From the IMG/VR virus record IMGVR_UViG_3300016662_000082, positions 1 through 44,904 of that record: a DNA stretch of 44,904 nt. One strand, 5' to 3'. Under the pieces are notes generated by a model. The model saw only the letters and a list, made by a program, of their open reading frames with translations. It was not told where the DNA came from and made no database searches. Made by a program: the position numbers and the translations under genes. Below, one piece after another: positions 3,803 to 21,058 of the stretch; position 1 is the first letter of the stretch, and each line of letters begins with the position of its first letter. The DNA comes from a virus. Its lineage: Duplodnaviria > Caudoviricetes.

Positions 3803-4948
3803 ATGGTGAAAAATATGAATAATCGTTATGAATTTTTGATTGTTGGAGCAGGTTTTTTTGGTGCAACATTTGCTCGAAAAGCTACGGATGCTGGCAAAAA
3901 ATGTTTAGTTATTGATAAAAATAACCATATTGCCGGTGCAACCTACGATAAAAAATGGGACAACGGAATAATTGTTGGGGAATACGGCGCACATATATTT
4001 CACACAGCAAGCGAAGAAGTTTGGCAATTTATCAATCAATTCACAACCATACATAATTTCATCAATAAACCTAAAGTTATATCAAACAATCGAGTCTATT
4101 CTTTCCCTATAAACATGATGACTTTACATCAATTGTGGGGCGTAGTAACACCACAAGAAGCATTCAATAAATTACAAGAAGTTAGAATACCCTGCGAAAG
4201 ACCTCGTAATTTTGAAGAATGGGCATTAGATCGTGTTGGCAAAGAACTTTACGAACTATTTTTTTATAGCTACACCAAGAAACAATGGCTCAAAGAACCA
4301 AGCCAACTGCCAGCATCGATCATTCAACGATTACCGATAAGACTCACTTACGAAGAAAATTATTTTACAACCAAATATCAAGGAATGCCCGAAGATGGAT
4401 ACGGCGAAACAGTTAAAAATATGTTGGATGGAATTGATGTTAATCTTGGAGTGGACTTTTTTACCATGCGAAACAATTGGCGTGATTATGCCAAGCATTT
4501 AATTTACACAGGACCGGTAGACAAATTCTATAACTTTGAACATGGCGAACTTGAATACAACACACTAAGATTTGAACATAAAGTTTATAAAGGCGATTTT
4601 CAAGGCAATGCTGTTTTCAATCATGCGGATATCAATGTACCTCATATAAGAACTATTGAAAACAAACATTTCCATGATCGAAGAACAAATAAACATTATG
4701 ATCCAAAAAACTTTGATTTAAATGAAACAGTCGTTACATACGATATTCCTGTATCATACAAAGATCATCCCGAACCTTATTACCCAATTAGAGATGAAAG
4801 AAACAGCGCAATATACGAAGAATACCTGAAACTCAAATCAAATGAACCCGACATTACTTTTGGTGGCAGACTTGGCGAATACAAATACCTTGATATCGAT
4901 CAAACGATTGCCTCTGCTCTGGTTAAAGCAAAAGCTTTTTTTAATTAA
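3803..4948 (+). CDS. glf: UDP-galactopyranose mutase
   Basis: IVGAGFFG FAD motif, YGAHIFHT, YTKKQW, RLPIR, YQGMP, EPYYP, GRLGEYKYLD. Start may be 3815. Confidence 0.95.
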   Translation: MVKNMNNRYEFLIVGAGFFGATFARKATDAGKKCLVIDKNNHIAGATYDKKWDNGIIVGEYGAHIFHTASEEVWQFINQFTTIHNFINKPKVISNNRVYSFPINMMTLHQLWGVVTPQEAFNKLQEVRIPCERPRNFEEWALDRVGKELYELFFYSYTKKQWLKEPSQLPASIIQRLPIRLTYEENYFTTKYQGMPEDGYGETVKNMLDGIDVNLGVDFFTMRNNWRDYAKHLIYTGPVDKFYNFEHGELEYNTLRFEHKVYKGDFQGNAVFNHADINVPHIRTIENKHFHDRRTNKHYDPKNFDLNETVVTYDIPVSYKDHPEPYYPIRDERNSAIYEEYLKLKSNEPDITFGGRLGEYKYLDIDQTIASALVKAKAFFN

Positions 4949-5132
4949 GGAAGCAAGGCCACAAGCACTTGCTTCCTTGTCCTTGTCAGAGAATTTCTCT
5001 AATTTGAAATCCAGCCTGATCGGTGCCTAAAAGCATCCCAATCCTGTATTGGCCTCATTCATCCACAACTACAGGTCAAACATCCATACAGACAGTCGGA
5101 ACCTTAGAATGTTGTAGGATAAGGTAGAATCC
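4947..5132 (-). ncRNA. Candidate GGA-rich small RNA (CsrA/RsmA-sponge-like) ending in a hairpin
   Basis: No credible ORF; 8 GGA on the minus strand (7 within 4974-5085); 11-bp hairpin 4947-4957/4968-4978 at the 3' end. Confidence 0.35.
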
Positions 5133-5147
5133 AAGGATAAATATATA

Positions 5148-6098
5148 ATGTTCAAACTTATCAAAAAGCAAACGATGTCGCCTGTAACTTTAAAGGAACA
5201 TTATTTGAGAAAAGACCGTGTTTTAATCAAAAGAAGAGTCGGCGGATTTGGCGATATTTTGATGCAAAGAATGATGTGGGAAGATTTCAAACTTCAACAT
5301 ATAGACTTAAAATTTACATACGCCTGCCCAGCAAAATACATGGACTTTGCTCTTAACCACCCTTTTATAAAAGTCATAAAAATTGATGATATAAATGAAA
5401 AAGAATATGGAATAATTTATGATATTACAAATTGCTGCTGTGTTTATGAATCACGACTCGGTGCGAAAAATAAAAAACATCGTAGCGACATTTGGGCAAA
5501 CTTTTGTGGAGTAGAACTTCAAAACCACAATATGCATTTACAAGTCGATGATGAGTATAAAAAAATAGTTCAAAAAGGACTATCGGAATTAAACCCAAAT
5601 AATTTACCCATAGTTCTTTTTGCTCCTCGTTCAACAAACTGTGATTATGGAATAGGAAAAAGTTTAACTCACGATCAAATCAAAGAAACAACAATTAAAT
5701 TGTGGGAAATGGGATTTTTTGTGATTTCAGTTCACAATCAAATTATTGAAGCATTTCAAGAACTTGGGGTTCCACAACTGATAAGAATTCATCCTTTAAT
5801 TTGGATCGCACTTACAGATACGGTTGATTATGTTATTTCAGTTGATACCTCCACTTTTCATCTAGCAGGCGGATTAGGTAAAAAACTTGTAGGTATTTTC
5901 ACCTACACAGACGGAAAAATTTATGGAAAATATTATGATTTTGTCTTAGTGCAAAAACATCGTGACAATAGGGATTGGGACTGCGGTCCATGTCTTCTCA
6001 ATCACCTTTGTCCAAAAACAAAAGAGAAACAAAAACCATGTTTAACTGAACTAAGCTCCGATGATATAATCGATGGATTCAAAAAACTAATTATTTAA
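5148..6098 (+). CDS. Glycosyltransferase family 9 (heptosyltransferase-like, GT-B)
   Basis: RRVGGFGDILM, VISVDTSTFHLAGGLGKKLVGIF, and a C-terminal CGPC...C...C cluster. Confidence 0.85.
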   Translation: MFKLIKKQTMSPVTLKEHYLRKDRVLIKRRVGGFGDILMQRMMWEDFKLQHIDLKFTYACPAKYMDFALNHPFIKVIKIDDINEKEYGIIYDITNCCCVYESRLGAKNKKHRSDIWANFCGVELQNHNMHLQVDDEYKKIVQKGLSELNPNNLPIVLFAPRSTNCDYGIGKSLTHDQIKETTIKLWEMGFFVISVHNQIIEAFQELGVPQLIRIHPLIWIALTDTVDYVISVDTSTFHLAGGLGKKLVGIFTYTDGKIYGKYYDFVLVQKHRDNRDWDCGPCLLNHLCPKTKEKQKPCLTELSSDDIIDGFKKLII

Positions 6099-6512
6099 TA
6101 AACAAACCTCTACACCCGATTCTGCGAATAAATTAAGTGACATCTCAATGTCTGAAACCCATCGTGGATTATCACAAACAGGAGCAACAACCCGCTTGAT
6201 TCCTGATTGAATTACCATTGATGCACAAGAAGCGCAAGGCATCATGGGATACACATATAATGTGCAATCTTTTAAACTTTTTTGAGCAAAAAGAATGGCA
6301 TTCCTTTCCGCATGTATTATAATCTTATATTTTATATCCCGATTATTCAATCGCTCATCTGTGTCTTCCACACCACGGGGCAAACCATTGTAGCCTACCG
6401 ACACAACTCTTCTATCAGCATCAACAATAACCGCTCCAACCTTGGTAGATGGGTCTTTTGACGCTGTAGAAATATATTGGGCCAAGCCCAATAACCAATT
6501 ATCCCAATTCAC
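6087..6512 (-). CDS. dCMP deaminase
   Basis: SKDPSTKVGA, GYNGLPRG, HAERNA and PCASC zinc motifs. Confidence 0.93.
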   Translation of the reverse strand: MNWDNWLLGLAQYISTASKDPSTKVGAVIVDADRRVVSVGYNGLPRGVEDTDERLNNRDIKYKIIIHAERNAILFAQKSLKDCTLYVYPMMPCASCASMVIQSGIKRVVAPVCDNPRWVSDIEMSLNLFAESGVEVCLLNN

Positions 6513-6972
6513 TTTTTTCCCTTTTGATCTTACATTTAACTTTTTTTAAGGCATCATAAATAAATTCATATCCGTCATGATTAGGGCCAAAATGTTCTTT
6601 TAAAATATTAACAGCAACAAATCCATTCTTCTTAAAGAAGCAATGCTCTGCCTTTTTTTCATCACTTATAATCAATTTAATTTTATTTTTAATGGTGTTT
6701 TTAAGATAATTTATCATTGCAGAACCAGCACCATTATGCCTATACGCAGGTTCAACAGCAATACTGATCAGTTTATAATATTCGTTCTTAATTTGATACA
6801 ACATGAATCCAATTACTTTGGTTTCATGTTCCACAACTAAGCCTACATAATCCTTGCGTTTCAGACACGCTAAAAAATCGTCATATTCCAATGGAAATTC
6901 AAAACTTTCAAGTTCAATACAGGCAATCCTTTCTAAATCGGACTGCAAGCACCAACGAACTAAAAACTTCAT
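6499..6972 (-). CDS. GNAT acetyltransferase (RimI-like)
   Basis: DLERIACIELESF, VIGFMLY, IAVEPAYRHNGAGS (motif A), FFKKNGF. Confidence 0.85.
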   Translation of the reverse strand: MKFLVRWCLQSDLERIACIELESFEFPLEYDDFLACLKRKDYVGLVVEHETKVIGFMLYQIKNEYYKLISIAVEPAYRHNGAGSAMINYLKNTIKNKIKLIISDEKKAEHCFFKKNGFVAVNILKEHFGPNHDGYEFIYDALKKVKCKIKREKSELG

Positions 6973-7001
6973 CTTATGGCCCTTCCTTGGACAAAGATAA
7001 A

Positions 7002-7151
7002 TTATAGACTTTCAATCAATCGATTGATAATTTTTTGCATGGAATTTGGATTAACATCAGTCAAAAGACTTTGAATTTGAAGGTCCGTCAATTTTTTGTG
7101 CTTGATAAAAAGGCTATAGAGTTTTTGTTTGTTTCCCTTGAAAGTAATCAT
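7002..7151 (-). CDS. Small hypothetical protein, 49 aa (possible HTH)
   Basis: Below the ORF-track cutoff: MITFKGNKQKLYSLFIKHKKLTDLQIQSLLTDVNPNSMQKIINRLIESL, with AAGGAG SD and a sigma70-type promoter upstream. Confidence 0.6.
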   Translation of the reverse strand: MITFKGNKQKLYSLFIKHKKLTDLQIQSLLTDVNPNSMQKIINRLIESL

Positions 7152-7180
7152 AAAGTCTCCTTTGTTAATTGGTACAAATG

Positions 7181-7209
7181 TTTATACCACGCCCAAAGGA
7201 GATTATCAA
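7181..7209 (-). promoter_or_regulatory. Sigma70-type promoter
   Basis: TTGATA-N17-TATAAA with an extended -10 TG. Confidence 0.6.
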
Positions 7210-7476
7210 TCAGTTTTTTACCCTGCTTATAAGCCAGTTATACACCTCTTCAATATCGTCTCTACTAGATGTGATATGATCACTAGCCCAATCATGACCG
7301 TTTGCTAACTCAGAATCTATTTTGCTAACATCCATTTTAAGCATTGCATCAATCTTTTCTTTGATAACCTTGAGGTTTGAAAAAAACATATAATGTTTTA
7401 TTTCTCCATCCTTAGCTTCATGGTATTGTGATTCGTTCATAACACCGGACAAATAAAGAAAATCTTCTTTTTTCAT
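7210..7476 (-). CDS. Hypothetical protein, possibly head-associated
   Basis: 88 aa, GAGG SD, preceded by the late-type TATATA box at 7494-7499. Confidence 0.7.
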   Translation of the reverse strand: MKKEDFLYLSGVMNESQYHEAKDGEIKHYMFFSNLKVIKEKIDAMLKMDVSKIDSELANGHDWASDHITSSRDDIEEVYNWLISRVKN

Positions 7477-7488
7477 GGTAACCTCACT

Positions 7489-8145
7489 TCACTTATATAT
7501 TTTATCAACAACATAATCCATCAATTCATGATAATTTTTAATTCGATCTTCAAGTTGATAATTCAATTTATGATAACCATCTAAAAAATAACTAAACTTT
7601 GATTCGTCAATAACCGAAAGACCACAATATTTCAAAATTTTACGAGCATAGATTTCTTTAGTCTCTGGATTTTCAAACAAATCCTCATAGGAAATTATGT
7701 GAGAGTCTTTAAGAAGACCAATGTAACTTAGATGCATTCTTGCTTGCTTTGCAATTTCAATCACAATATCTTGATTTAATTCATATTTTTTTTCATAATA
7801 GTCAGGATTTACTGCTGTTTTTTTATAAACTTTAGTAGTCCTAGCTAACGCAAGAGATATTGCAGATTTAATCAAATCTTTTCTATAAAGATATATGACT
7901 TTAAATCTTTTTAAAATTTCTATGTTTTGTTCTTTATTTAAATGAAAACTTAAATGCTTGAAACCATCAAATTTATTTTCTAATAAATTCAGCGATCCCA
8001 CAAAATTAGTTTGTGCTATTTTGTAATATTCTTTTTGAAATATTGGGCTGTATGGCTCAAAATTAAAATTTGCACCTTGAGAATTAAGAAGATGCATCAA
8101 ATTAGTGCTTCCGCACCTTGCAAATGAAAAAATTACAAACTTCAT
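7489..8145 (-). CDS. Sulfotransferase (Stf0-like P-loop fold)
   Basis: FARCGSTNL 5'-PAPS loop, FEPY, LYRKDLIKSAIS 3'-PB motif, ISYEDL. Start placed at MKFVIF (ATGA overlap with the upstream gene). Confidence 0.85.
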   Translation of the reverse strand: MKFVIFSFARCGSTNLMHLLNSQGANFNFEPYSPIFQKEYYKIAQTNFVGSLNLLENKFDGFKHLSFHLNKEQNIEILKRFKVIYLYRKDLIKSAISLALARTTKVYKKTAVNPDYYEKKYELNQDIVIEIAKQARMHLSYIGLLKDSHIISYEDLFENPETKEIYARKILKYCGLSVIDESKFSYFLDGYHKLNYQLEDRIKNYHELMDYVVDKIYK

Positions 8146-8768
8146 TTTATTTTTTTCATTACAACACAATCTTTTCCTAATTCACAAACTTTTTCACAAA
8201 ATTGCATCAAATAATTAAATCCTTTTTGTGTAGTTGGAGAAATACTTCCGTCCATCCATGTAGTATCATCAAAAAATATAAAACCACCGACTTTGACTTT
8301 GGGATAAAACAATTTTGCATCTTCAAAAGCATTTTTCTCAGAATGATTTCCATCTATATGAAGCAAATCAATTTGTCCATCCTCAAATTGCTTTACAGCT
8401 TGAATTGATTTTTTTCTTAAAACTTTCACATATTTGCACAAATTCATACTTTTTTTAAGATTTATAAAATGATTATAAATTTCTTCCATTGGAACTTTTG
8501 ACCAAAAATCTAAGTTTTTGTCATTTTTCATTTCTTCTAATGCAATTTTATTACTCCAAGGATCAATTCCATAAATAAAACCAGCGCCATTATTTTTTAA
8601 AGCAATTGCTTGAGGGAATAAAGACGATCCGCCGAAAACTCCAATCTCAACACAGCATTCTAATTTATTTTTAGTAATTATTTCAAAAAGCTTCATAGCT
8701 TTATCTTCAGAACACCAGCCTTTAACAGCCTTTGCTTGATTATTTAAATAAATTTTAATATTTTTCAT
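8142..8768 (-). CDS. Class I SAM-dependent methyltransferase (Methyltransf_24)
   Basis: VEIGVFGGSS, GIDPW, IDLLHIDGNH, VKVGGFIFFDD. Confidence 0.9.
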   Translation of the reverse strand: MKNIKIYLNNQAKAVKGWCSEDKAMKLFEIITKNKLECCVEIGVFGGSSLFPQAIALKNNGAGFIYGIDPWSNKIALEEMKNDKNLDFWSKVPMEEIYNHFINLKKSMNLCKYVKVLRKKSIQAVKQFEDGQIDLLHIDGNHSEKNAFEDAKLFYPKVKVGGFIFFDDTTWMDGSISPTTQKGFNYLMQFCEKVCELGKDCVVMKKIK

Positions 8769-9453: not shown

Positions 9454-10989
9454 TTATGCCTCATAAGTGTTTTCTAATGCATCGTCGCCTTTAAAACCTC
9501 GCTTACTACGCTGTTTTTTACCAGAAGGCTCACCGACAGCATCCATATTTACTTCATCGGCTTTCTTTTCTTGGACAAGGTTCATTTGTTCTCTGTATCT
9601 TTCCTTGGAAATCTCAAACATATCCAAGGTTCCTAACTTGTAATCAAATCCAATCTTAAAAGCAAACCTTGATCGACCATTACGATGTTTAATCACAAAA
9701 ACACGACCAACTTCGGCATCCTTCTCTAGAACCTGTTGATTGATGCTCCAAAATGCATCTAAAGGCTTGAACTGATCAAAACTTGTGCCGATATTTCCTT
9801 CGTCAATAAACTGGCCTATTTCCAGCTTTGCAGCGGATTGATTGGGCTGTACGCAAGTAAAAGTACAATGCCCCTTTTCAACACCAAAACCACGCAGATC
9901 ACGCAAAATTCGATACGCTGATTCGTACTTCTTGACGGAAGGATCGTCTTTCATTTCTCCGACATAATCAAGAATCAAAAGATTGGGTTTGAATCCACGC
10001 AATTCTAATTGCGCCATAAAAGCACGAATACCGTTCACATCAAGTTGACCGCCGGGAAATTGTTTTACATGCAATAAATTTGGATCATGCTTATCTTTCT
10101 TAAATTCCTCAATCATGTGTTTGATTTCATCTTTAACACCACGAAGATTGTTGATGTCCATTTTAGCAAATTGACTAGTAAATCTTTGAGTAATACCCAA
10201 TTCATCCATTTCAAGCGTGATGTATAAAACCTTGTGTCCCAAAAGAACATTTTGTACTGCCGCTTTTACCAATGCTAAAGATTTACCTGTACCCGGCAAA
10301 CCAATCCAACTTGCAATTTGACCAGCAAACAGTCCACCACCAGTTAATGCATCATCAATCGACGGAAAACCTGAAGTAAATCTTTCTTTGCCTTCAAAAA
10401 CATAATCCATTCGAGTGAACATCTCATCGATGTTCATGAAATACTCAAGTCCCGGTTCATAAGACCTGTCAACAAGCATGGCTTGTCGCATTTTTTCATA
10501 GACAAAATTCCAAGTTTTCTCGTCTTCTGGCGATTCATTCATCTTTTCAGCACATTGATGAAAAGCAATTTTTACAGCTTGAACCTTGGCAAAATAAGTT
10601 ACTTTTTCAATAAGATATTCTCTAGATTCAAGACCCGGTACATAATATGTGTAAAGAGATTTAAGTTCAGACAAATAATGCAAAAGAACAGACTGGTCAC
10701 GATCTTTTAAAGAGGAGCGCAGTTCATTGGCAATAATAAATTCATCTGGGATGACAGCCTTTGTAATGAATTGTTGCAGTAAAATTTTAGAAATGATTAC
10801 ATGGGCTTCATTGCTAAAATAGTCTGGCTTTATTTTATCAACCGATTGAATTAACATAAATCGATCTTTAAGAAGCATTGCCAAAAGTTTGCGCTGAAAT
10901 GTGTCGTCCCAAGCAAATTTTGGCTTAACAACTTGAGAATCTGTCATTGACTCAAGTTGCGCTTGTTCTTCCGGTGTCAAATCACGCAT
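9454..10989 (-). CDS. Replicative helicase, DnaB/T4 gp41 family
   Basis: SGFPSIDDAL, Walker A GLPGTGKS, YITLEM, LILDY Walker B, IKHRNG arginine finger. Confidence 0.93.
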   Translation of the reverse strand: MRDLTPEEQAQLESMTDSQVVKPKFAWDDTFQRKLLAMLLKDRFMLIQSVDKIKPDYFSNEAHVIISKILLQQFITKAVIPDEFIIANELRSSLKDRDQSVLLHYLSELKSLYTYYVPGLESREYLIEKVTYFAKVQAVKIAFHQCAEKMNESPEDEKTWNFVYEKMRQAMLVDRSYEPGLEYFMNIDEMFTRMDYVFEGKERFTSGFPSIDDALTGGGLFAGQIASWIGLPGTGKSLALVKAAVQNVLLGHKVLYITLEMDELGITQRFTSQFAKMDINNLRGVKDEIKHMIEEFKKDKHDPNLLHVKQFPGGQLDVNGIRAFMAQLELRGFKPNLLILDYVGEMKDDPSVKKYESAYRILRDLRGFGVEKGHCTFTCVQPNQSAAKLEIGQFIDEGNIGTSFDQFKPLDAFWSINQQVLEKDAEVGRVFVIKHRNGRSRFAFKIGFDYKLGTLDMFEISKERYREQMNLVQEKKADEVNMDAVGEPSGKKQRSKRGFKGDDALENTYEA

Positions 10990-11038
10990 GGAAAGCCTCG
11001 GATGGTTTATTTATTATTACCAGCCCAAGGCTTCATAA

Positions 11039-11404
11039 TCAAGCCAGATCAGTATCACGACGCCTAAAATACCAAAAAATCAATCTTGCAAGATTATGAG
11101 CATAAGGAGTCAGGGCTTTATTTTGCATCAATCCTTTTATTTTTTTAGCAAATGCAGAATCAGCAGAAATAGTTTCCGGCGATTTAAACAAACTTAATGG
11201 AACAGCCGCTTTCCAATCTTTTCCTGCTTTACAGTAATCAATGTCATGTTGCCTACAAGCAGAATCCAAAGGATCAATTGGTTTTGGCAAAGGAGCATCA
11301 TCAGCCAGCTTATCGCAATCCGGTTGCTTTAATTTGGGACCGGGACCGCAATAAACGCCGTACCAATTCTCGTTTTTTTGATTTAACCACTCGGAAAATT
11401 TCAT
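11039..11404 (-). CDS. Phospholipase A2-like protein with a capsid-targeting-like N-terminus
   Basis: Ca-binding loop YGVYCGPG and catalytic DxLDxACxxHDxxY (PIDPLDSACRQHDIDY). Start set at MKFSEWL, 4 nt after TATAAATA. Confidence 0.8.
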   Translation of the reverse strand: MKFSEWLNQKNENWYGVYCGPGPKLKQPDCDKLADDAPLPKPIDPLDSACRQHDIDYCKAGKDWKAAVPLSLFKSPETISADSAFAKKIKGLMQNKALTPYAHNLARLIFWYFRRRDTDLA

Positions 11405-11408
11405 ATTA

Positions 11409-11416
11409 TATTTATA
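11409..11416 (-). promoter_or_regulatory. T4-type late promoter TATAAATA
   Basis: Exact T4 late consensus immediately before the PLA2 start. Confidence 0.6.
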
Positions 11417-11427
11417 ACAGAAGGAAG

Positions 11428-11525
11428 AAAAAAGGTGGCGCACCGCTATTCATGCCGCATAATAAAAAAATATAATCATCTATTGACCTCAATAATTCGG
11501 CAAGACGATGAACTACACCACCTTT
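11428..11525 (-). terminator. Structured RNA element or terminator closing the polA-sigma unit
   Basis: AAAGGUGGUGU/GCGCCACCUUU 11-bp closing helix, inner UGCCG/CGGCA and UAUUGA/UCAAUA pairings, ending in a U6 run. Confidence 0.5.
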
Positions 11526-11537
11526 ATATTTTTTACA

Positions 11538-12092
11538 CTAATTTTGCAAATAGTCAAATTCACTTAAGGAAACCATTCCGCTACGAATTGATTTTTCTCT
11601 AGTTATCTTCTTGCCCATCGACTTTTGTCCGTTCCAGACAATTGCCTTGCAGTATGTGGCAAATTTTGAATCAATTTTTAAAGGGGCATCCTTAATTGGT
11701 TGCTCCTCTTTCGGAACCATTCTTCGAACAATTTTATCTAGTAAATTTTCTTGATGCTTGCCAAACTTTTGCCTATTGGCTCCATGCCTTGTTCTATTAC
11801 TCCAAAGATTTTCGAGTTCTTGAACAATTTTAAAAACAAATTTATCATCAGCATGTTTTTTTGCAGCAGCCAAGCATTTTTCAATATAAATCTGTCGTTT
11901 ATAATAGCTTCCAGCACGAAGCATACTCATCTGCAATTCTTGTTTGATGTCTTCGGCATCATCGAGGAAGTTGTTATTTGAATTTTTTCTTTTTAATTCA
12001 TGTGCAGCACACCAGCACAACTTAGAAAATTTTTTGTCGAGTTCAAGGAATTCTTTTTCCGTAATTGGAAAATCATGAATAATTTCACGCAT
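11538..12092 (-). CDS. Sigma-70 region-2-only factor (no region 4)
   Basis: DAEDIKQELQMSMLRA resembles region 2.2 (DL.QEG.IGL..A); SKFATYCKAIVWN resembles region 2.3 (KFSTYA.WWIR); ends shortly after VSLSE. 184 aa, TAATG-coupled to the polA-like gene. Confidence 0.6.
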   Translation of the reverse strand: MREIIHDFPITEKEFLELDKKFSKLCWCAAHELKRKNSNNNFLDDAEDIKQELQMSMLRAGSYYKRQIYIEKCLAAAKKHADDKFVFKIVQELENLWSNRTRHGANRQKFGKHQENLLDKIVRRMVPKEEQPIKDAPLKIDSKFATYCKAIVWNGQKSMGKKITREKSIRSGMVSLSEFDYLQN

Positions 12093-13414
12093 TATGACCC
12101 TTTTCTTACCAATGGCTTCAGACTACTTAAATTTCTCCCAGCACGACAAGCCACTTTAAGTCGTAAACCGGGGCACAATACCGATTCGCCAGTCAAGACC
12201 TCAAAACCAGTCGCAAATACTTGCTTCCAGTTGTCTTTGGTGGCATAAACAACAAATCCGTCATGAACAGTATAAGAAATATCTGCCTTGCCTTTCAACG
12301 CAAAATAAAGACTTATAAGTTTTTCGGAACATATCGTGGCAGCAGGAGCTTGAACACAAAAATTGCGAACAAGGTATTCTTTGCCAGATTCAAAATTAAC
12401 TCTACGCTTCCCAAATATGTCTTTTGCGTAGCCTGTTTCACGAAGCTGTTGCTCATAACTTGCCACAAACCTCAAAGCGGTCGGAAAAAAAGAACTAATT
12501 CGTTCCACAACACGCTCGGCTATGTCCATTGCAACCCCACATCGTTGCGACAACGAGTAGGCGGACTGCCCGTATATATGCGGAAGAAAACATTTTTTTG
12601 CGAATTCCCTATCTTCTTTACTGACAGGCTCTTTATCAGTCAAACAGCGATATAATTCAGAATAAATATCAGTTTCCCTACACAGTCTTTGCAAAAGCGG
12701 GTCTTTACTCATCCATCCCAACATATAAACTTCCATGCCCTTAAAATCAAAAAGCATGAAAAGTTCATCCTGAGTTCTTGTTTTTAAAACCTCCTTCTTT
12801 TCCGGTTTCAAAGTGTGAGGCAGAAAACTATGCTTAAAAGCATCAAAACAACGAAACCGACCATTTTCCTGACCATCAATCTCATAATGGCTATAAGCCA
12901 TAGATTGTTGGTCTGGATCAATGATGCCAGTAGTTTCAATGTTAGGCAAAACAGTTGTAATGAGAGGCAAATGTATTTTTCTATAAATTGATTCTATTTC
13001 TTTCCAAATTCCCGATGAAACTATATTTCGCAATCTGTTTAAAGCTTCAGTTAAGTTTTCTGGAGATTTTTCTTTTATACCACTATAAGATTCAATAATC
13101 TTAAGATCAATAATAGAACAATCAACAACAAATTCTGTTTTAGTAACAAACTTTACATACGAAACAAATGATTTCCAATCCCAAGATATTACTTTTCTAT
13201 CTTTTGAAAACAAAGAAAGTTGAAACATACTCAAAGTTAAATATATGTTATCCGGCGTGAGCGATACAACAAAGTGCGATTCTTGGCCCGTAAAGACTTC
13301 AATCTGTGCGGGCGACTCCAAATCCGTAAAATCAAAAACAGCGGGGTTAAAACGCAAATAAACGCTTTTGGCGTCAACGCTGGTCAAAAGGTTTGCGAGT
13401 TGGCTGTAATCCAC
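12092..13414 (-). CDS. Minimal family-A DNA polymerase-like protein (thumb deleted, degenerate exonuclease)
   Basis: Motif A FDFKGME, motif B REFAKKCFLPHIYG, motif C TVHDG, NGRF (TGRL equivalent), DIFGKRR, RNFCVQAPAA; only 440 aa. Confidence 0.85.
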   Translation of the reverse strand: MDYSQLANLLTSVDAKSVYLRFNPAVFDFTDLESPAQIEVFTGQESHFVVSLTPDNIYLTLSMFQLSLFSKDRKVISWDWKSFVSYVKFVTKTEFVVDCSIIDLKIIESYSGIKEKSPENLTEALNRLRNIVSSGIWKEIESIYRKIHLPLITTVLPNIETTGIIDPDQQSMAYSHYEIDGQENGRFRCFDAFKHSFLPHTLKPEKKEVLKTRTQDELFMLFDFKGMEVYMLGWMSKDPLLQRLCRETDIYSELYRCLTDKEPVSKEDREFAKKCFLPHIYGQSAYSLSQRCGVAMDIAERVVERISSFFPTALRFVASYEQQLRETGYAKDIFGKRRVNFESGKEYLVRNFCVQAPAATICSEKLISLYFALKGKADISYTVHDGFVVYATKDNWKQVFATGFEVLTGESVLCPGLRLKVACRAGRNLSSLKPLVRKGS

Positions 13415-13420
13415 AAGCTA

Positions 13421-13449
13421 ATTATGCAAAGGCGATGAAATTGAGTCAA
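13421..13449 (-). promoter_or_regulatory. Sigma70-type promoter giving a leaderless polA-like mRNA
   Basis: TTGACT-N17-CATAAT, 6 nt before the GTG start at 13414; no SD. Confidence 0.65.
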
Positions 13450-13564
13450 GTCAAAAGCAAGTCAGATCAAACTTATGAATTCTGCTTTACAATAGAATTA
13501 TACACCGGGGGGCTGTCTCAAAGTAACGCATTGCATTAGAAATGTATAATACTTATACACTTCA

Positions 13565-13958
13565 AGAGAAGATGAAAATTAGTAGTGTGAAATCTTTTGG
13601 TGTTTAAACCTACTCAATTGCATTACTCTTTTCATTCTCCTGCTATGATCCTTTGTAGTGATGCTAATTTGTGTACTTTTGGGTTGGCATCCAAAATCCA
13701 AGCAGTCAATGCTCTTGTCGCTCAACATTGAATCAGCCATTAGGTCTGCTCGGCGTTCACCTCTACCAACTGTGTGACAATGCCTCCCGTAGCGGCATTC
13801 ATTGTAGAACAACTACAAAGTCTCACCCTGTTAAGGGCCACACAGGTTTTTACATCATTGCTTTTCAGGAGGTACAACACCTGATTGCAATAAAGGGACA
13901 ATAGAGTGTCCTTCTCAGTAGTTAGAAAGTTTCTCGACAAGTAGCCTTTCGGCTTCAT
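13565..13958 (-). ncRNA. Candidate large structured non-coding RNA (~400 nt)
   Basis: More than ten helices found by eye, a GAAA tetraloop, several pseudoknot pairings, G-U wobbles that work only on the minus strand, its own promoter, and no credible ORF. Confidence 0.65.
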
Positions 13959-13960
13959 AA

Positions 13961-13988
13961 ATCGTAATACCTTAATCATCAAAGTCAA
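13961..13988 (-). promoter_or_regulatory. Sigma70-type promoter for the candidate ncRNA
   Basis: TTGACT-N16-TACGAT just upstream of the first hairpin AGCC-GAAA-GGCT. Confidence 0.5.
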
Positions 13989-14051
13989 GTTCAACAAAAA
14001 ATTGTCTGCGACTCATTGATAACTTGCAATCAACCAATCTTGTGGAGTAAC

Positions 14052-14780
14052 ATGGCTGAATCAAATCAAGAGGATGAACCTTTGAACTTTGATGCTATAG
14101 CAAAATACAATATGACTGATATTGAGATCAAAGCATATAAAATAACTATGCTATGGCTTGATAGAAGTAGAAAACTATTTCCTGACTATCGCCACTCTAC
14201 AATGAAAAAGGGTGACCCACGCAAATCTCTTGTATTTAAAATTTGTTTTAAACTTGTTCGTGAAACTCAAGGTGTGTTAGAAGACCAAGAATATCCTCTC
14301 TATGTTCGTGCTCAACTCGAAGTTTTAAAATATGTTAACGCTGATCGGGTTGACCCTCTCATCGATCCTAATTGCCTTGTAGGAGAAAAAGCATGGAAAA
14401 GATGGAAACTTTGGAAAAAGAAATATGATAGTTTGTCTAAATCATCTGCACCTGTTGCTACAAACATCGGAATTGCTAAGGCAATAGATGGATTGGAAAA
14501 GACTAAAGAATTTTTGGTTAAAACATTCAGTTCAGACTTGTCTTTTAACCGATTTCAAGAATCATATTTAAACAATAACATATTTAGATGGATTAACTTA
14601 AATAAGATATCACCATATTATATTGCAATTTCTCCATACATTAAAAAACTTTTCAACGAAAACGATTATAAAAAAATAAATTTTGATACGCAAGTTTATA
14701 TGACTTGTATAGATCAATCAGTTATTGATAAATTCAATCAATTATTTGTCGAAGAATCAGATTTCAAGAGCACGACCTAA
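14052..14780 (+). CDS. Hypothetical protein, possibly a gp59-like helicase loader
   Basis: ATG 14052 has a GGAG SD. AYKITMLW, KAWKRWKLWKKKYDSL and NIFRWINLNKISP recall T4 gp59 (VYKLYLM...YIFKLLQSNIIS). The ORF is solid; the function is tentative. Confidence 0.45.
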   Translation: MAESNQEDEPLNFDAIAKYNMTDIEIKAYKITMLWLDRSRKLFPDYRHSTMKKGDPRKSLVFKICFKLVRETQGVLEDQEYPLYVRAQLEVLKYVNADRVDPLIDPNCLVGEKAWKRWKLWKKKYDSLSKSSAPVATNIGIAKAIDGLEKTKEFLVKTFSSDLSFNRFQESYLNNNIFRWINLNKISPYYIAISPYIKKLFNENDYKKINFDTQVYMTCIDQSVIDKFNQLFVEESDFKSTT

Positions 14781-15702
14781 TTTGTTTGTGCATTGGGCTT
14801 GTGTATAACATATAATCAAGAATTGCTGTTCTGATATACAAACCATTCCTTACTTGTCTTTCGTGATAATCTGCTCTTGGATCATCATCAATATCCTCGC
14901 TGATTTCTTCATTTCTTGGCAAAGGATGCAAAATTGCCGCATTTTCTTTGACATATTGAATATTTTCTTTATTTATTTTGAAGAAATCAATATTATCACA
15001 AATGCCTTTAAATCTTTCTTTTTGAATCCTTGTCATATAAATAATGTCAATTTCTGGAAGCACATCGTTTGCGTCACAAATTTCAACATTTTTGCAAGGA
15101 ATTTTTTCAAGATATTTTTCTGGAATGCTTAGATCGCAGTTATTATGGTCTGTTGCTGCACAGTAATAAATTTTTAATTCATATAAATTAAGAAGTTCGA
15201 TAAGGCTATGAATTGTTCTTCCGTTTTTAAGGTCGCCACACAACATAATTTTCAAACCATTGATATTTTTCCATTTTTGTTTAATTGTATGAAGATCAAG
15301 AAGTGCTTGTGTTGGATGTTCACCAGAACCACTACCCGCATTTATAACTGGAACTCTTGAATAGGCTCTGGCAACCTCTGGCCACGACGAGTCGCTATGT
15401 CTCATGACAATAGCATCTGCATATTGTCCAAGAGTTCTAAATGTATCTTTAAGGCTTTCACCCTTGGTTAAACTGCTGCTTGAAGATGCATCTGCGGCAG
15501 TAACAATTCTCCCGCCAAGCCAATGCATGGCTCTTTCAAAACTAAATCTTGTTCTAGTTGAAGGTTCAGCAAAAAAACTAGCAATACACTTGTTGTTCAT
15601 TTGGCGACAGTAAGTCCAATTTTTTTCAATTTCTATCGCAATTTCAAGTATCTTTTCAATTTCTTCTTTATTAAAGTCTGAAATAGAAAGGAAATGTTGC
15701 AT
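14764..15702 (-). CDS. pyrB: Aspartate carbamoyltransferase catalytic subunit
   Basis: FAEPSTRTRFSF, KGES, VMRH, EHPTQALLD, GDLKNGRT, MTRIQKER, HPLPR: catalytic motifs intact. Confidence 0.96.
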   Translation of the reverse strand: MQHFLSISDFNKEEIEKILEIAIEIEKNWTYCRQMNNKCIASFFAEPSTRTRFSFERAMHWLGGRIVTAADASSSSSLTKGESLKDTFRTLGQYADAIVMRHSDSSWPEVARAYSRVPVINAGSGSGEHPTQALLDLHTIKQKWKNINGLKIMLCGDLKNGRTIHSLIELLNLYELKIYYCAATDHNNCDLSIPEKYLEKIPCKNVEICDANDVLPEIDIIYMTRIQKERFKGICDNIDFFKINKENIQYVKENAAILHPLPRNEEISEDIDDDPRADYHERQVRNGLYIRTAILDYMLYTSPMHKQIRSCS

Positions 15703-16592: not shown

Positions 16593-16862
16593 ATGAATTT
16601 TAAGACATGGCTAGAATTTGAAGAAAAAGATTTTAATTATTACAAGAGCCTTATTCTTGGTAAACTTGATTTAGAGAGCCCAGAAGGTTTGTCTGTTTCG
16701 CTCGATACATTTAACACTCAAAATTTAATTGAGCAACTACAAAGTCTAGGTGAATTTAAGGAATTGGCTTCTGACACTCAGCAATTTATTTTAAATAAAG
16801 TAAAAAGTGGTGATGGAACAGTAGAGGATTTAATTAGAATCATGGCTAAGAAATCAGCTTAA
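16593..16862 (+). CDS. Hypothetical protein with a capsid-targeting-like N-terminus
   Basis: 89 aa starting MNFKTWLEFEE, GAGG SD. Confidence 0.75.
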   Translation: MNFKTWLEFEEKDFNYYKSLILGKLDLESPEGLSVSLDTFNTQNLIEQLQSLGEFKELASDTQQFILNKVKSGDGTVEDLIRIMAKKSA

Positions 16863-17907
16863 ATATTTTTTGAGCCATTTTTTCCCAAGTTTTTGTTTTC
16901 ATAGTTTGTGCTGCATTCTTACCTAACATTTGAATTTTTTTACGATTTTCGTATGACCATTTAATTAGTTCGATAAGATGGTCGGAGTCAGGCTCCTCCC
17001 AATTGCTAATGATTTCTCCTTCGGTAGATTTCAAGACAATTATGCCTTTAGAATTGAGTGGCAATCCGTTCTCAGAATTAAGAATGTCACCTTGACCTGT
17101 TCCAATAGTCCCTATGCAAGGTTTGCCGCAAGCCATATATTCCATCATTACTAGATTAGTTCCTGCTTCACATCTAGATGGAAAAATTCCAAGATCAGTA
17201 TTTTGATAAATTTCTGCCATCATTTCATTACTATGCAAAGGTGTCATGATAACTCGGTCTTGAGGTATGCCTGCCTTGATCAGATCATCTTTGCCGTCAT
17301 CTTTTGTATAAGTATTCGTCCAATTACACACCAGCTTAATGTCTGCATACTTATCGCAAATGGATTTAAATGCTTTTATGATGACATCCTGACCCTTTCT
17401 CGTTTCGTATTTACATCCTGAAAATAAAAAGAAATCATCTGTAAAATACTTTTTAATTTTTCTTGATTCGTTAAAAATAATTGGGTTGATACCCTGATGG
17501 ATTACTGTCGATTTGACTCCATAACTCTCAAGTAGCTTTTGGCTCCATGATGAACCTGAAACTATGAAATCATAGTGCTTTGACTTTATCACCAAATCAT
17601 TAGGTATTTTCCTATCGGAAAATGTAATGCCCACTTTGATTGATCCATTGAAGTAATCAATATATGGTTTCAAATCATGTTCTAAAGCTTGGATTAAAGG
17701 ATAATCTTTTTGATTTTTTAAATAATTGAAATCATTATAAGATATTTTTTGAAAATAAGTGTTCGCTATTGAACTTACTTTTTCGTTATTATCAAATTCA
17801 CTTGAACAATATTTAATTTTTGTAATTTGGGAAAGTTCTGTGGCTAAGTTTAGACTACAAACTCCCCAGCCTGTATAGTTGTTGTATGGCAAAGCCAAAA
17901 ATATCAT
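16846..17907 (-). CDS. Glycosyltransferase family 4 (GT-B)
   Basis: RKGQDVIIKAF and FPSRCEAGTNLVMMEYMACGKP (EX7E-like motif). Confidence 0.88.
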   Translation of the reverse strand: MIFLALPYNNYTGWGVCSLNLATELSQITKIKYCSSEFDNNEKVSSIANTYFQKISYNDFNYLKNQKDYPLIQALEHDLKPYIDYFNGSIKVGITFSDRKIPNDLVIKSKHYDFIVSGSSWSQKLLESYGVKSTVIHQGINPIIFNESRKIKKYFTDDFFLFSGCKYETRKGQDVIIKAFKSICDKYADIKLVCNWTNTYTKDDGKDDLIKAGIPQDRVIMTPLHSNEMMAEIYQNTDLGIFPSRCEAGTNLVMMEYMACGKPCIGTIGTGQGDILNSENGLPLNSKGIIVLKSTEGEIISNWEEPDSDHLIELIKWSYENRKKIQMLGKNAAQTMKTKTWEKMAQKIFKLIS

Positions 17908-18443
17908 AGCAAGTAACCGAGTATTGTCCCTTCAAAGTCACAACCTACTGGAGCTTCGTGTTTTACTTTAATTGTTATTGTATCACCTGCGGCAACTTTA
18001 ATTGGCGAATGTGAATAAGAAATTGTCACAGTAAGATTTGCTACTGAGCTTCTTGCAGCTAAAACAACATTCCCGTCAACATAAAGTTTGAAAACAGCAT
18101 TTGCATTTCCGCTCACATTGAGGCCAATAAAATAGAAAACTTTTCCAACAGGGACAGCATAAGTGACTACTGTTGTTTCCGATGAAGTAGGAACTAAAGT
18201 TACATCATCGTATGTATTGGCTTCTGTGCCGGGAAAACTGGAAATTATCGGTCTGGTAATTAAACCGAATTCATCTCCAACAGGATTAGTCGTTTGGGCT
18301 GGTACAATATCATCTAAACCTTCGCCTGTTATGACGACACGGGGTCTTTTGCGGTTAGTTGGTGCGCTTGGATAAACCACAAGGGATTCATCCATGACAT
18401 CCCCGCCAACACCGGGATTCAGAACTGTGTAATCGTCAGCCAT
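17904..18443 (-). CDS. Hypothetical beta-rich virion protein
   Basis: V/T/G-rich, AGGAG SD, TAAATA late-type box at 18465-18470. Confidence 0.65.
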   Translation of the reverse strand: MADDYTVLNPGVGGDVMDESLVVYPSAPTNRKRPRVVITGEGLDDIVPAQTTNPVGDEFGLITRPIISSFPGTEANTYDDVTLVPTSSETTVVTYAVPVGKVFYFIGLNVSGNANAVFKLYVDGNVVLAARSSVANLTVTISYSHSPIKVAAGDTITIKVKHEAPVGCDFEGTILGYLL

Positions 18444-18518
18444 TTTAAGAATTTTCTCCTTTTTTATTTAGTGAGGCAATGAATAAATCATATATGGTGC
18501 AAATTTTTTGTCTAAAGT

Positions 18519-18526
18519 TATAAATA
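18519..18526 (+). promoter_or_regulatory. T4-type late promoter TATAAATA
   Basis: Exact consensus followed by GGAGG (18531-18535) and ATG 18541. Confidence 0.6.
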
Positions 18527-18540
18527 GTATGGAGGATTTT

Positions 18541-18852
18541 ATGCGTATATCCAAGGACAATCCCATAGTAATACCGGCTTCAGATGAAAAAACCTACGAC
18601 ACATGGTGGGTAGAAAATATAAGTCTTGACGCAACTTTAATAGCCAGCACAGAACCAATTTTGGTTGTTGATTATAGGCTTTGCTATCTAGACGAAGAGA
18701 GTAAACCGCATTTTCACCCAAACGAACGCAGAAGATTACATCTGCGTGATATGTTCACATTTATGTCAGATAAACCAGAATTGTATGAAACAGTCTGGAA
18801 TGCAGTCTCGGTGCTTGGAAATATCGGCAAAGATACTGGAGTTCTAGATTGA
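18541..18852 (+). CDS. Hypothetical protein, paralogue of 42811..43125
   Basis: Shares NPxxIxxxxxKTYDTW; start revised using the SD. Confidence 0.75.
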   Translation: MRISKDNPIVIPASDEKTYDTWWVENISLDATLIASTEPILVVDYRLCYLDEESKPHFHPNERRRLHLRDMFTFMSDKPELYETVWNAVSVLGNIGKDTGVLD

Positions 18853-18855
18853 CCG

Positions 18856-18864
18856 TGGTATAAT
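18856..18864 (+). promoter_or_regulatory. Extended -10 promoter
   Basis: TGGTATAAT ahead of AAGGAG SD and the exonuclease start. Confidence 0.55.
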
Positions 18865-18886
18865 CCTGTCACAAGGAGAAATTACC

Positions 18887-19600
18887 ATGCGTTATCTGTC
18901 AATTGACATCGAAACAACAGGACTGAGTCCCGAAAACTGCGACATTATCCAATTCGCTGCGGTTTTGGATGATCTCAAAAATCCTAAACCATTAGCTGAA
19001 TTACCGAAATTTGAAGCGATAATTTTAAAAAGGTATGGATATCAAGGACATCCCTTTGCATTATCAATGCATTCAAACTTATTTAAAAAAATAGATATAG
19101 CTATCAAAAAGAATTTAGAAATTTGTCCTACAACAGGTGTTCGTTTTTTACAAATTTGTGAATTACCACAAGCATTAGAACTATTTTTACTATCAAATGG
19201 GTTCGACCAAAATCATGGCAAAATGTATGTGAATGTTGCTGGAAAAAACATTGGACAATTTGATTTGCCATTTTTAAATGCCAAAATCAAAGATTGGGGA
19301 TCAATCAAATTTTTGAGCCGTGTCATTGATCCGGCTATCTTGTATTTTGATATTCAAAAGGATATTTCTCTTCCTGACATGAAAACTTGTTTGGAAAGAG
19401 CGGGTCTAGCCGAAGAGGTAGCCCACACAGCTTTAGAAGATGCATTGGTAGTAGTAAAACTTTTGAGGAAAAAATTATTGGAGGAAAAATGTGTTGCGGA
19501 AGAAAACGACATGCAAAAAGAAAGGTTACAGGAATGCGTTCGGGAAGATTTAAGGCCAAAATTAAAAAAGAAGTCCAAGTCCCTCAAGAACAAGAGGTAG
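18887..19600 (+). CDS. DEDDh 3'-5' exonuclease (DnaQ-like)
   Basis: SIDIETTGL (ExoI), GKNIGQFDLPFL (ExoII), HTALEDA (ExoIII). Confidence 0.9.
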   Translation: MRYLSIDIETTGLSPENCDIIQFAAVLDDLKNPKPLAELPKFEAIILKRYGYQGHPFALSMHSNLFKKIDIAIKKNLEICPTTGVRFLQICELPQALELFLLSNGFDQNHGKMYVNVAGKNIGQFDLPFLNAKIKDWGSIKFLSRVIDPAILYFDIQKDISLPDMKTCLERAGLAEEVAHTALEDALVVVKLLRKKLLEEKCVAEENDMQKERLQECVREDLRPKLKKKSKSLKNKR

Positions 19601-19638
19601 TTACTCCGATCCATGAGCAACATACTCCGCATAAATAA
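19489..19638 (+). CDS. Small basic protein, 49 aa, overlapping both neighbours
   Basis: GGAGG at 19480-19484 then ATG 19489: MCCGRKRHAKRKVTGMRSGRFKAKIKK... Confidence 0.45.
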   Translation: MCCGRKRHAKRKVTGMRSGRFKAKIKKEVQVPQEQEVVTPIHEQHTPHK

Positions 19639-21058
19639 CGATTATTCGTTTTTCTTAACCGCAGACGAACATCTGCGACGAGAGTTGTTTCAACGACTTC
19701 GTTTCAGAGATAAAAATTATTTTCACAACAGAGCTTATAAGATGAAGAAGTGGGATGGTTTCATCAACTTCTTCGCAAATGATACAGGCAAATTTCTCAC
19801 TGGACTTCTTCCTGAAGTAACCGCTGTTCTCAAACATTTCAATGCCGAATATACTATTGACGATCAACGACAAAAAACTCCGTTTTCAATTGATACAATT
19901 AACGAGACATTCCTGAATCAATGGTTGCCGGAAACCAATAGCGTTGGCGATAAAATATCTGATTTTAAGTTATATGACTATCAAGTAGAAATGATCAATC
20001 AAGTCATTAAACATCGTCGTGGAGTGATATATGCTCCTACTTCTGCCGGTAAATCATTAGTCATGGTTGGAATTTTAAAAACCATAGCACCAAATATGCC
20101 GACTCTTGTCCTGCAAAACAGGGCTTCTTTGGCACAGCAAAACTATGAAGAGTTTGTAAAATGGGGATTGCCTAATGTAGGATGCTTATGGGGTGGTTCT
20201 GTTAAACCTAATATGATCACGGTGGCTACTGTTCAAAGTATTGCCAAAATGGAAAAAGTGTTGCCTAAAATTCGTGTTTTAATTGTTGATGAAATTCATG
20301 ACATGATGAGCACTTTGCCAAAAGCTGTCTATAGACGACTTAAAGCTGCTGACATTAGAGTCGCTGTATCAGCCACACCATTTAAGTTTGGCGGAAAAGA
20401 TAGCGTCCAAAAATTTTATGTAAGAGGTTTTTTTGGTCCTATCTTAAAGATTAAGTCTGCCGAAGGTGGTGTGCTTACAACTTCAGAACTCCAAGATCGT
20501 GGAATTCTAGCACAAAGTAAATGTACATTTTATCCTATTCGTGAGCCACAAATTCCACACGATATCTATATCGATGCCGTAACCAGAGGGATTGCTGAAA
20601 GTTTTTATTTCCATGATGTTGTAACAAGATTAGCTCGACAACAAAAAGGAAGAACCCTTATTTTAGTCGATAGAATCGCTCACGGAGATGCCCTGCACAA
20701 TCTTTTACCGGGAAGTTTATGGGTTCAAGGAAAAGATAACGCAGAAACTCGCAAAGGCGTTATCAAAGAATTGCAAAAAGCTAAAGGCGATTTAATTGCG
20801 ATAGCAACACAACAAATTTTCAATACAGGTATCAATGTGCATCCAAATAATCTTATCAATGCTGCTGGTGGCCAAGCCGACCACATGATTATTCAGCGCA
20901 TGGGTCGTGGATTAAGAACCGCTTCTGATAAAGAACGGTTGAATTATTATGACTTTGTCTTTGAAATCAATGATTATTTGCTTGAACATAGCAACAAAAG
21001 ACTTGCCATTCTTAAAAAAGAAGGACACGAAGTAACAATAAAGGAAATAGATTTCTAA
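19613..21058 (+). CDS. uvsW: UvsW-like superfamily 2 helicase
   Basis: LYDYQ Q-motif, APTSAGKS, DEIH, SAT, TGIN, QRMGRGLR and the N-terminal WDGFINFF typical of UvsW. Confidence 0.9.
   Translation: MSNILRINNDYSFFLTADEHLRRELFQRLRFRDKNYFHNRAYKMKKWDGFINFFANDTGKFLTGLLPEVTAVLKHFNAEYTIDDQRQKTPFSIDTINETFLNQWLPETNSVGDKISDFKLYDYQVEMINQVIKHRRGVIYAPTSAGKSLVMVGILKTIAPNMPTLVLQNRASLAQQNYEEFVKWGLPNVGCLWGGSVKPNMITVATVQSIAKMEKVLPKIRVLIVDEIHDMMSTLPKAVYRRLKAADIRVAVSATPFKFGGKDSVQKFYVRGFFGPILKIKSAEGGVLTTSELQDRGILAQSKCTFYPIREPQIPHDIYIDAVTRGIAESFYFHDVVTRLARQQKGRTLILVDRIAHGDALHNLLPGSLWVQGKDNAETRKGVIKELQKAKGDLIAIATQQIFNTGINVHPNNLINAAGGQADHMIIQRMGRGLRTASDKERLNYYDFVFEINDYLLEHSNKRLAILKKEGHEVTIKEIDF

Follow-up and report, generated by a model that had tools for sequence, protein, structure and literature searches.

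A pseudoknotted RNA element upstream of a thumb-less family A DNA polymerase as a predicted replication primer in huge phages

Replication of ColE1 plasmids starts from a pre-primer transcript, RNA II, that is extended by DNA polymerase I (Pol I; PMC5043065), whereas in ColE2 plasmids the archaeo-eukaryotic primase (AEP) Rep makes a primer that a Pol I-type enzyme then extends (PMC4538821). Here we analyse a 44,904-nt stretch of phage DNA (the window), a 45-kb part, about 10% complete, of the virus record IMGVR_UViG_3300016662_000082, which is found in freshwater metagenomes and has relatives on contigs of up to 533–595 kb. A large structured element, predicted to be a non-coding RNA, lies in the window upstream of polA, the gene of a thumb-less family A DNA polymerase, and of a gene for a sigma-2-like protein. 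The RNA likely primes phage replication, because in most relatives tested strand bias flips at the slot that it occupies, which in some relatives is taken instead by a gene for an enzyme predicted to make primers. We put the probability of this reading, a ColE1-like RNA-primed origin with PolA as the starter polymerase, at roughly 0.55. An initial annotation of the window, made from its letters, had offered RNA-primed origin firing as one of two options, and adjacency, covariation, a skew minimum and the replacement of the RNA by predicted primer-making enzymes support that option.

The resemblance to ColE1 (PMC5043065) covers a long structured RNA that has its own promoter and ends at an origin, here placed solely by skew, and a predicted series of persistent hybrid, RNase H trimming, Pol I-type extension and helicase loading. 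Unlike ColE1, which uses host Pol I, the phage encodes a dedicated thumb-less polymerase, its RNA has two long-range pseudoknots and matches neither plasmids by blastn nor Rfam, and skew suggests bidirectional replication of a 380–530-kb genome; further, no equivalent of the antisense RNA I was identified in the phage, where plus-strand promoter-like sites were not surveyed across lineages. ColE1 RNA II makes a contact between a G-rich loop and a C-stretch near the origin, and an internal segment of the phage RNA is likewise predicted to pair with the template near the origin. By analogy, the phage locus may work like RNA II and Pol I, yet it is no member of the ColE1 family. The parallel with ColE2 (PMC4538821) is carried by four related lineages with an AEP gene in the slot, not by the window; this AEP is matched weakly by Pfam, and its primase activity is predicted.

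Similar polymerases have been described in smaller phages. The enzyme divPolA1 has an intact palm, a truncated thumb and an inactivated exonuclease, is extra to a regular polymerase and is encoded upstream of replication genes, and divPolA2 is a small PolA/RNAP-like enzyme (Yutin et al. 2024, PMC11348598). The window PolA likewise combines a truncated thumb with an intact palm, is an additional polymerase and lies beside replication genes, and a small enzyme that fills the slot in five lineages fits the description of divPolA2 (PMC11348598). These likenesses are of description, family-level homology of the window PolA and the slot enzyme not being established; tblastn of the window PolA gave 482 matches, with no Flavobacterium phage among those listed (25 rows, 10 organism groups). 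The two enzymes were reported from phages of 155–190 kb and of 80–85 kb, and the section on them mentions no RNA or origin (PMC11348598). TV-Pols, minimal family A polymerases and predicted primase-polymerases, and AEPs displace each other in situ (Iyer et al. 2008, PMC2579912); unlike the phage PolA, TV-Pols keep the thumb module and are linked to D5 helicases or resolvases, and the portion of that account considered here describes no RNA alternative (PMC2579912).

The order divergent gene, slot, thumb-less polA, sigma-2-like gene and helicase gene is conserved in 88 related huge-phage lineages. Among 68 loci found by way of the sigma-like protein, polA lies immediately upstream of the sigma-like gene in 65, the other three being cut contigs, and the helicase gene lies downstream of it in 67. 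Three further scans brought the total to 302 loci, of which the 294 with a long polA open reading frame (ORF) fall into 88 lineages at 90% identity, the window being one; the sigma-like gene is downstream of polA in 82 of these lineages. The initial annotation had listed four co-oriented elements, namely the RNA, the polymerase, a sigma-region-2 protein coupled to it by TAATG and a 95-nt structured element. All four are present on the minus strand, and the adjacency of the two protein genes is conserved in homologues, but the TAATG overlap and the 95-nt element are not conserved core parts.

Several lines of evidence bear on the RNA. A profile built from upstream regions detects a ~430-nt element in 39 of the 88 lineages, with its 3′ end ~45–230 nt ahead of polA. 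A 52-pair structure evaluated in 20 sequences has compensatory changes in 36 of 52 pairs and 84.7% of cells paired (slid controls, 33–48%), figures that lean in its favour because the structure was drawn on the window sequence and derived from the tested data. Canonical compensatory pairs also rank top in an unsupervised covariation scan of 32 sequences. The long-range pairs 13787–13508 and 13788–13507, which join a hairpin loop to the 3′ terminus, are canonical in 31 of 31 filled rows, with A-U and G-C exchanged, and a second long-range helix closes near the same end (Table 1); these data support a multi-helix fold with two pseudoknots for the element. G-U pairs are frequent in the helices, and GNRA- or UUCG-capped hairpins occur in several relatives. 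The element is preceded by a promoter-like site in 21 of 29 lineages (6.5 expected), and the second promoter, in the gap between the RNA and polA, is not clearly conserved (11 of 29 lineages, 7.4 expected). The ~400-nt structured RNA with its own promoter in the initial annotation, and the covarying upstream RNA that it had proposed to seek in homologues, are thus found; folded as single sequences, the two strands give weak signals (z −2.3 and −2.5), and transcription is predicted from the promoter. No RNA run is among the 13 sequencing runs listed for the sequence of the record.

The element matched no known family. The window and 10 diverse loci gave no match in Rfam 15, whose families include GOLLD, ROOL, HEARO, RNase P, tmRNA and group I/II introns, with two chance rows only at E ≤ 10; ARAGORN found no tRNA or tmRNA in the window, and blastn against plasmids gave no match. 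RNase P, tmRNA, group I introns and HEARO were rejected by eye, the order of helices differing from that of their architectures. We found no prior description in the open-access literature, a search that left subscription journals and bioRxiv supplements outside, so that a listing among supplementary RNA motifs is possible.

Within the element, a 5-mer is present both internally and near the 3′ end. The unsupervised scan drew attention to columns 13823/13518 and 13821/13516, which vary together by identity, not complementarity. With 4 of 32 rows set aside (1 cut, 3 without the internal segment), positions 13824–13820 equal 13519–13515 in all 28 remaining sequences, column for column in 21 and with a one-column shift in 7, over 8 variants; a shuffling control that ignores kinship gave at most 11 matches in 10,000 trials. 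Sister lineages (L017/L150 and L002/L006) show joint differences in the two copies. Among all aligned 5-column blocks, the best RNA-internal complement to the 5-mer reaches 10 of 28 rows. Because the template always complements the 5-mer and no RNA block does, pairing with template DNA at the 3′ end is suggested, and we predict that the internal 5-mer pairs with the template strand. The two guide-like segments of the RNA, 14–38 nt apart, would address opposite strands of one ~17-nt site. A scan for the 5-mer-plus-loop pattern also found L108, L189 and the distant L144, all missed by the profile, and 0 of 14 AEP, small-polymerase or class II loci, with ~0.4 matches expected over all 83; its 28 of 37 matches are partly circular, the pattern having been designed on the same RNAs, and those in L098 and L177 are off-position and were discounted.

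The slot is exchangeable. It holds this RNA in 39 lineages, a second RNA class in 6, an AEP in 4, a small PolA-like gene in 5 and other content in 32, and is too short in 2; in the 9 lineages with a protein gene there, the searched stretch (up to 1.5 kb upstream) contains no copy of the RNA. The AEP group has a ~425-aa gene between the divergent gene and polA, with motifs I (DxD), II (sxH) and III (D/E) in 36–37 of 38 homologues and Pfam AEP-TOTE matches at E 9e-5 and 6e-5; from these motifs it is predicted to encode an AEP primase. The small polymerase, 370–400 aa and PolA/T7-RNAP-like, occupies the slot in five lineages and in LR756511.1, carries GRV, DIxNSQP, QRxE and HDS motifs and falls with a family-A palm cluster in the Atlas (TM 0.85); a search matched 6 uncultured huge phages only, with homologues in phage records of 634–735 kb. 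A quick tree of PolA has a single origin each for the AEP group and for class II, and at least two separate ones for the small polymerase. In situ displacement between minimal family A polymerases and AEPs has been treated as a sign of equal function (PMC2579912).

Other slot contents were seen. The second RNA class lies ~700 nt upstream of polA in one clade (L199, L211, L213, L217, L265 and L289); an internal G-rich arm co-varies by eye with a 3′ C-rich arm, and L213 has no Rfam match. Gene-free slots of 500–900 nt with promoter-like sites and hairpins (L145/L255, L200/L201/L203, L221, L234, L248, L251, L206 and L065) probably hold more RNA classes. The AEP genes (L057:3362–4645, L064:3390–4655, L216:2585–3901 and L428) share a ~25-nt stretch conserved at the DNA level near the 3′ end, in a variable linker, a candidate origin within the gene; the small polymerase gene (L137:3772–4947, L142 and L425) has a short conserved DNA stretch in an insertion, near the skew minimum of G008. 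TnpB/Cas12-like genes lie in or beside the slot in L238:1971–4250, L242 and L138:1946–3109, the slot of L065 has a 91-aa ORF (L065:4354–4629) with a match to the C-terminal domain of EF-Tu (E 3e-7), and an RNase HI gene 0.7–1.6 kb upstream of polA is followed by one or two ORFs without assignment in L231:3333–3881 and L239:3701–4237.

Record G001, complete at 533 kb, has its global cumulative GC-skew minimum at 512,998, inside the RNA and 261 nt upstream of polA. The left–right skew contrast at the locus ranks 1/533 in G001, 1/431 in G002, 30/380 in G003 and 11/436 in G004. We corrected skew for gene strand through third codon positions in 10 long records, G005 and G006 covering only 200 kb around or near the locus. 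In 7 of the 10 (G001 and G004 to G009), the corrected minimum is no more than 1.5 kb from polA, a locus at which the initial annotation had raised a skew inflection as something to look for; a shift in the same direction for the genes of either strand (z ≥ 2.7) is seen in 7 of 10. The signal follows the slot with RNA or small polymerase alike, because the corrected minimum stays within 1.5 kb of polA in those records, and is weak for the AEP group. From the skew, we consider it likely that the locus is a replication origin. A DnaG-like primase is encoded in 4 of 5 records and an RNase H-like protein in 3 of 5.

PolA retains the catalytic part of its family. Its model (pLDDT 95.7) matches the exonuclease plus polymerase of Pol I (Foldseek E 1e-20 to Pol I), and catalytic motifs A, B and C and the palm/fingers fold of family A are present. 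The thumb subdomain is gone, because profile positions 165 and 173 align to KlenTaq residues 157 and 267, a span of ~109 KlenTaq residues against 7 in PolA; Pfam match, alignment gap and model together confirm the 440-aa thumb-less polymerase first recognized in the initial annotation. Since the active-site residues R186, D223, E228, K273, Y281 and D385 are invariant in 124 PolA sequences of 27–91% identity, selection acts on catalysis; one distant member has Y in place of H384. A 3′–5′ exonuclease domain is present with only D28 (Exo I) invariant and no acidic residue at what we take to be the Exo II and Exo III sites, and this activity is probably lost. A DnaE-type polymerase is encoded in 4 of 5 long records, so PolA is probably an accessory enzyme. 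The DnaE-type polymerase is split into two ORFs 10–21 kb apart in G003, G004 and G005. A DnaQ-like exonuclease lies beside a UvsW-like helicase at window 18887–21058 (plus strand), and proofreading in trans is conceivable.

We propose the following course of events. The sigma-70-type promoter, conserved ahead of the element, would drive a ~430–460-nt transcript towards polA, and this transcript would adopt the doubly pseudoknotted multi-helix shape supported by covariation. The internal 5-mer, co-varying with its 3′ copy, would pair with the template strand, and the ACRRG loop and the arm of the second pseudoknot would hold the sense sequence, be it in the tail of the RNA itself or in the displaced DNA strand. 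The duplex would stay open with the 3′ part of the RNA hybridized as an R-loop, and the RNA 3′ end, possibly trimmed by RNase H, would be extended by PolA, whose conserved active site suggests activity and which would need only a short, non-processive run. The displaced strand would take the downstream-encoded helicase, and the DnaE-type polymerase and DnaG-like primase, encoded in most records, would presumably follow. In other lineages a protein primase in the slot would give the primer, like ColE2 Rep in place of ColE1 RNA II.

A number of observations weigh against an RNA-primed origin. The corrected skew minimum is +7.4 kb away in G002 and 11 kb away in G010, an AEP record; G003, which bears the RNA, has its raw detrended minimum at +201 and a strand-corrected rank of 50/320; G009 shows opposite shifts on the two strands; and in the window itself the skew does no more than flatten near 14–15 kb. 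The complete record G001 has no DnaE match. Pfam scores of the AEP are under the curated cut-off, with one of three tested giving no match. The 5-mer is missing from 3 of 32 aligned RNAs and was found in 0 of 6 members of the second RNA class, and the 3′ pseudoknots could hide the RNA 3′ end instead of offering it as a primer. The slot is unclassified in 32 lineages; since genes of unrelated kinds (TnpB-like, HNH-helicase, GNAT) fill it in some and L222 lacks any gap ahead of polA, it also takes ordinary insertions. The mechanism itself is proposed from sequence.

The same guide-like segments admit readings that go beyond priming or replace it. In one, which we regard as doubtful, the RNA is a self-targeting guide that would grip both origin strands, open the origin and hand its 3′ end to PolA, with the RNA fold replacing the grip of the thumb, and the RNA initiator would have been freely swapped with protein primases in evolution; if this were true, the 5-mer and loop might be reprogrammed to start replication at chosen sites. 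In another, which we hold to be unlikely, a stable particle would act as an RNA-guided opener, the 5-mer pairing with one DNA strand and the loop with the other and the partner being PolA, the sigma-like protein or the divergent protein; priming would fall to the phage DnaG-like primase, or to the RNA only secondarily. Heavy pseudoknotting suits such a particle, as do two segments addressing opposite strands of one site and a skew minimum at that site, but the RNA would be targeting its own 3′ end, as expected of action in cis, the partner of the loop may simply be the RNA tail, and replacement by predicted primases favours priming over opening.

Huge phages carry large RNAs without assigned function, and the element resembles GOLLD, ROOL and HEARO in size class, pseudoknots and phage location; unlike them it lacks an Rfam match and keeps a fixed position at a replication cassette. 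It could be an independent RNA of this kind, or a regulatory leader, at a divergent-promoter junction, with PolA serving repair or primer removal and the sigma-like protein acting as a gp55-like late sigma factor. As this would allow, gene strand also switches at the junction in some records and the slot does take unrelated genes; the skew shift survives strand correction, however, the RNA never occurs alongside the predicted primases in the slot, and a repeated 5-mer with no partner would stay unexplained, which makes an independent RNA quite improbable.

The second option of the initial annotation, in which the missing thumb is replaced by the RNA or by the sigma-like protein or the RNA serves as a template, found no positive evidence; templating of a DNA product would make the system retron-like. 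The loss of the thumb is complete and in 39 lineages the RNA is the immediate upstream neighbour of polA, both of which a polymerase cofactor or template would account for. The same thumb-less PolA, however, persists in 9 lineages with a protein gene and no RNA in the slot, which argues that the RNA is not an obligatory thumb substitute; neither a conserved tract resembling a template nor a repeat product was seen, and the skew minimum is left unexplained. We judge this option, too, quite improbable. It is very improbable that the element acts as DNA, as a folded single-stranded origin or an array of protein sites with a promoter that merely aids opening, because, although covariation cannot separate RNA from single-stranded DNA, a direct repeat and a palindrome could be protein sites and the location is that of the origin, G-U pairs are frequent and capped hairpins occur in several relatives, a conserved promoter stands immediately before the 5′ end and the concerted base changes in sister lineages fit base pairing better than protein recognition.

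For the RNA-primed origin, the part played by the sigma-2-like protein is the least certain; most likely it would direct RNA polymerase to the origin or to late transcription. Its gene is the most conserved of the cassette (55–80% identity; 1090 relatives). In a wide structural search (VIA), ~23 of 50 rows are sigma factors or sigma-like subunits, counted from titles, with 70–89 residues aligned around a helical insertion at Z 5.5–6.9, below the bar for helical proteins; the Atlas places a Sigma70_r2 cluster among its matches (row 0.95; 2 of 30 matches). No match was obtained in Pfam, PHROGs, PDB sequences or by Foldseek of the model, and residues 48–61 and 144–158 resemble by eye what we take to be regions 2.2 and 2.3. 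Because the structural matches have such Z values and sequence searches gave none, a sigma region-2 fold is probable, not proven. All 5 records tested carry one to three other sigma factors, so this protein would be an extra one. A co-fold with PolA scored 0.02 and was counted as evidence neither way. In the window the sigma-like ORF overlaps the polA stop codon as TAATG (bases 12090–12094); this coupling, claimed in the initial annotation, is particular to the window genome and was rejected as a conserved feature, the gap ranging from −65 to +78 nt in 28 relatives, and the fold proposed with it has moderate support. The 95-nt element does fold as a rod, as had been noted, but is restricted to some lineages: it has covarying relatives in part of the RNA clade, gives way elsewhere to short terminator-like hairpins and is absent where the helicase gene follows directly. 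It was rejected as a core part; in the simplest reading it is probably an operon terminator or 3′-end stabilizer.

Phage T4 offers a partial parallel. Its R-loop origins (oriF/uvsY) are primed by transcripts that are the 5′ parts of mRNAs, T4 is not known to encode a PolA, and its late sigma factor gp55 is a protein of ~185 aa with region 2 only. The phage studied here has a gp32-like single-stranded DNA-binding protein and a UvsW-like helicase near the cassette, a proposed transcript-primed origin and a probable region-2-only sigma of similar size; unlike T4 it has PolA and a predicted, dedicated folded RNA, with no sequence match to gp55 or gp59 and no gp55 fold match obtained.

Table 1. Positions of the cassette features and their neighbours in the window
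Feature	Position	Strand	Basis
DnaB-like replicative helicase	9454..10989	−	Pfam DnaB_C; follows sigma-like gene in related loci
Long rod, then U-run (95-nt element)	11433..11525	−	Folding z −3.0
184-aa protein, probable sigma region-2 fold with helical insertion, no region 4	11538..12092	−	Model pLDDT 90
Thumb-less family A DNA polymerase, 440 aa	12092..13414	−	Pfam DNA_pol_A E 7e-24, residues 207–429
Sigma-70-like promoter between RNA and polA	13421..13449	−	10/12 matches, best-scoring site
Imperfect palindrome just beyond RNA 3′ end, candidate protein-binding site	13478..13499	.	By eye here and, for similar palindromes, in relatives
Large structured element, predicted non-coding RNA	13497..13955	−	Conserved core 13497–13922 (nhmmer); 5′ end placed from promoter
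3′ target segment: 5-mer, spacer, CYYG	13503..13519	−	Covariation and pattern scan; DNA synthesis predicted to start at or just past segment
5′ arm of second long-range pseudoknot, pairs with 13512–13515	13734..13737	−	Helix 10: 95% of cells paired, 2/4 pairs compensatory
Hairpin loop ACRRG, complementary to 3′-terminal CYYG	13786..13790	−	Helix 8 of 52-pair structure; covariation
Internal 5-mer, copy of 3′ 5-mer	13820..13824	−	Same 5-mer at both sites in 28/28 sequences
Sigma-70-like promoter of RNA	13961..13988	−	9/12 consensus matches
Divergent gene	14052..14780	+	Borders slot in most lineages; no family or PDB match

The cassette (Table 1) had been placed between the replicative helicase and a divergent gp59-like gene; both neighbours are there, but a phospholipase A2-like ORF intervenes on the helicase side, and the divergent gene has no match to gp59 or another family in Pfam, PHROGs or PDB sequences. 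This gene is a candidate helicase loader or initiator. The intervening ORF (121 aa, 11039–11404, minus strand; PF08398, E 2e-5) lies between the 95-nt rod and the helicase gene and occurs in 3 of 68 related loci. An aspartate carbamoyltransferase-like gene adjoins the cassette (14764–15702, minus strand) and is retained in many relatives. Besides the helicases and the gp32-like protein, the window encodes many sugar-modifying genes; a large cluster at 3126–8768 and 16846–29684 comprises glycosyltransferases, methyltransferases, sulfotransferases, a UDP-galactopyranose mutase and a 2OG-Fe(II) oxygenase and possibly serves glycosylation of the virion or of DNA. A repeat search of 11000–14200 found weak families only, with no iterons and no IS ends. 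No host is assigned, because the four contigs found in a GTDB scan sit in unrelated metagenome-assembled genomes and are probably mis-binned phage DNA.

The start of replication in phages of 400–700 kb is poorly understood, and the locus would provide a concrete, testable origin for a widespread freshwater lineage, in which the co-varying 5-mer and loop allow exact compensatory-mutation tests. Two kinds of molecule would each gain a likely job: a large RNA family absent from the catalogues, and the PolA enzymes with a truncated thumb, for which no role had been settled in 2024. A single genomic slot taken by an RNA or by either of two unrelated predicted primer-making proteins would be a natural parallel of ColE1 versus ColE2.

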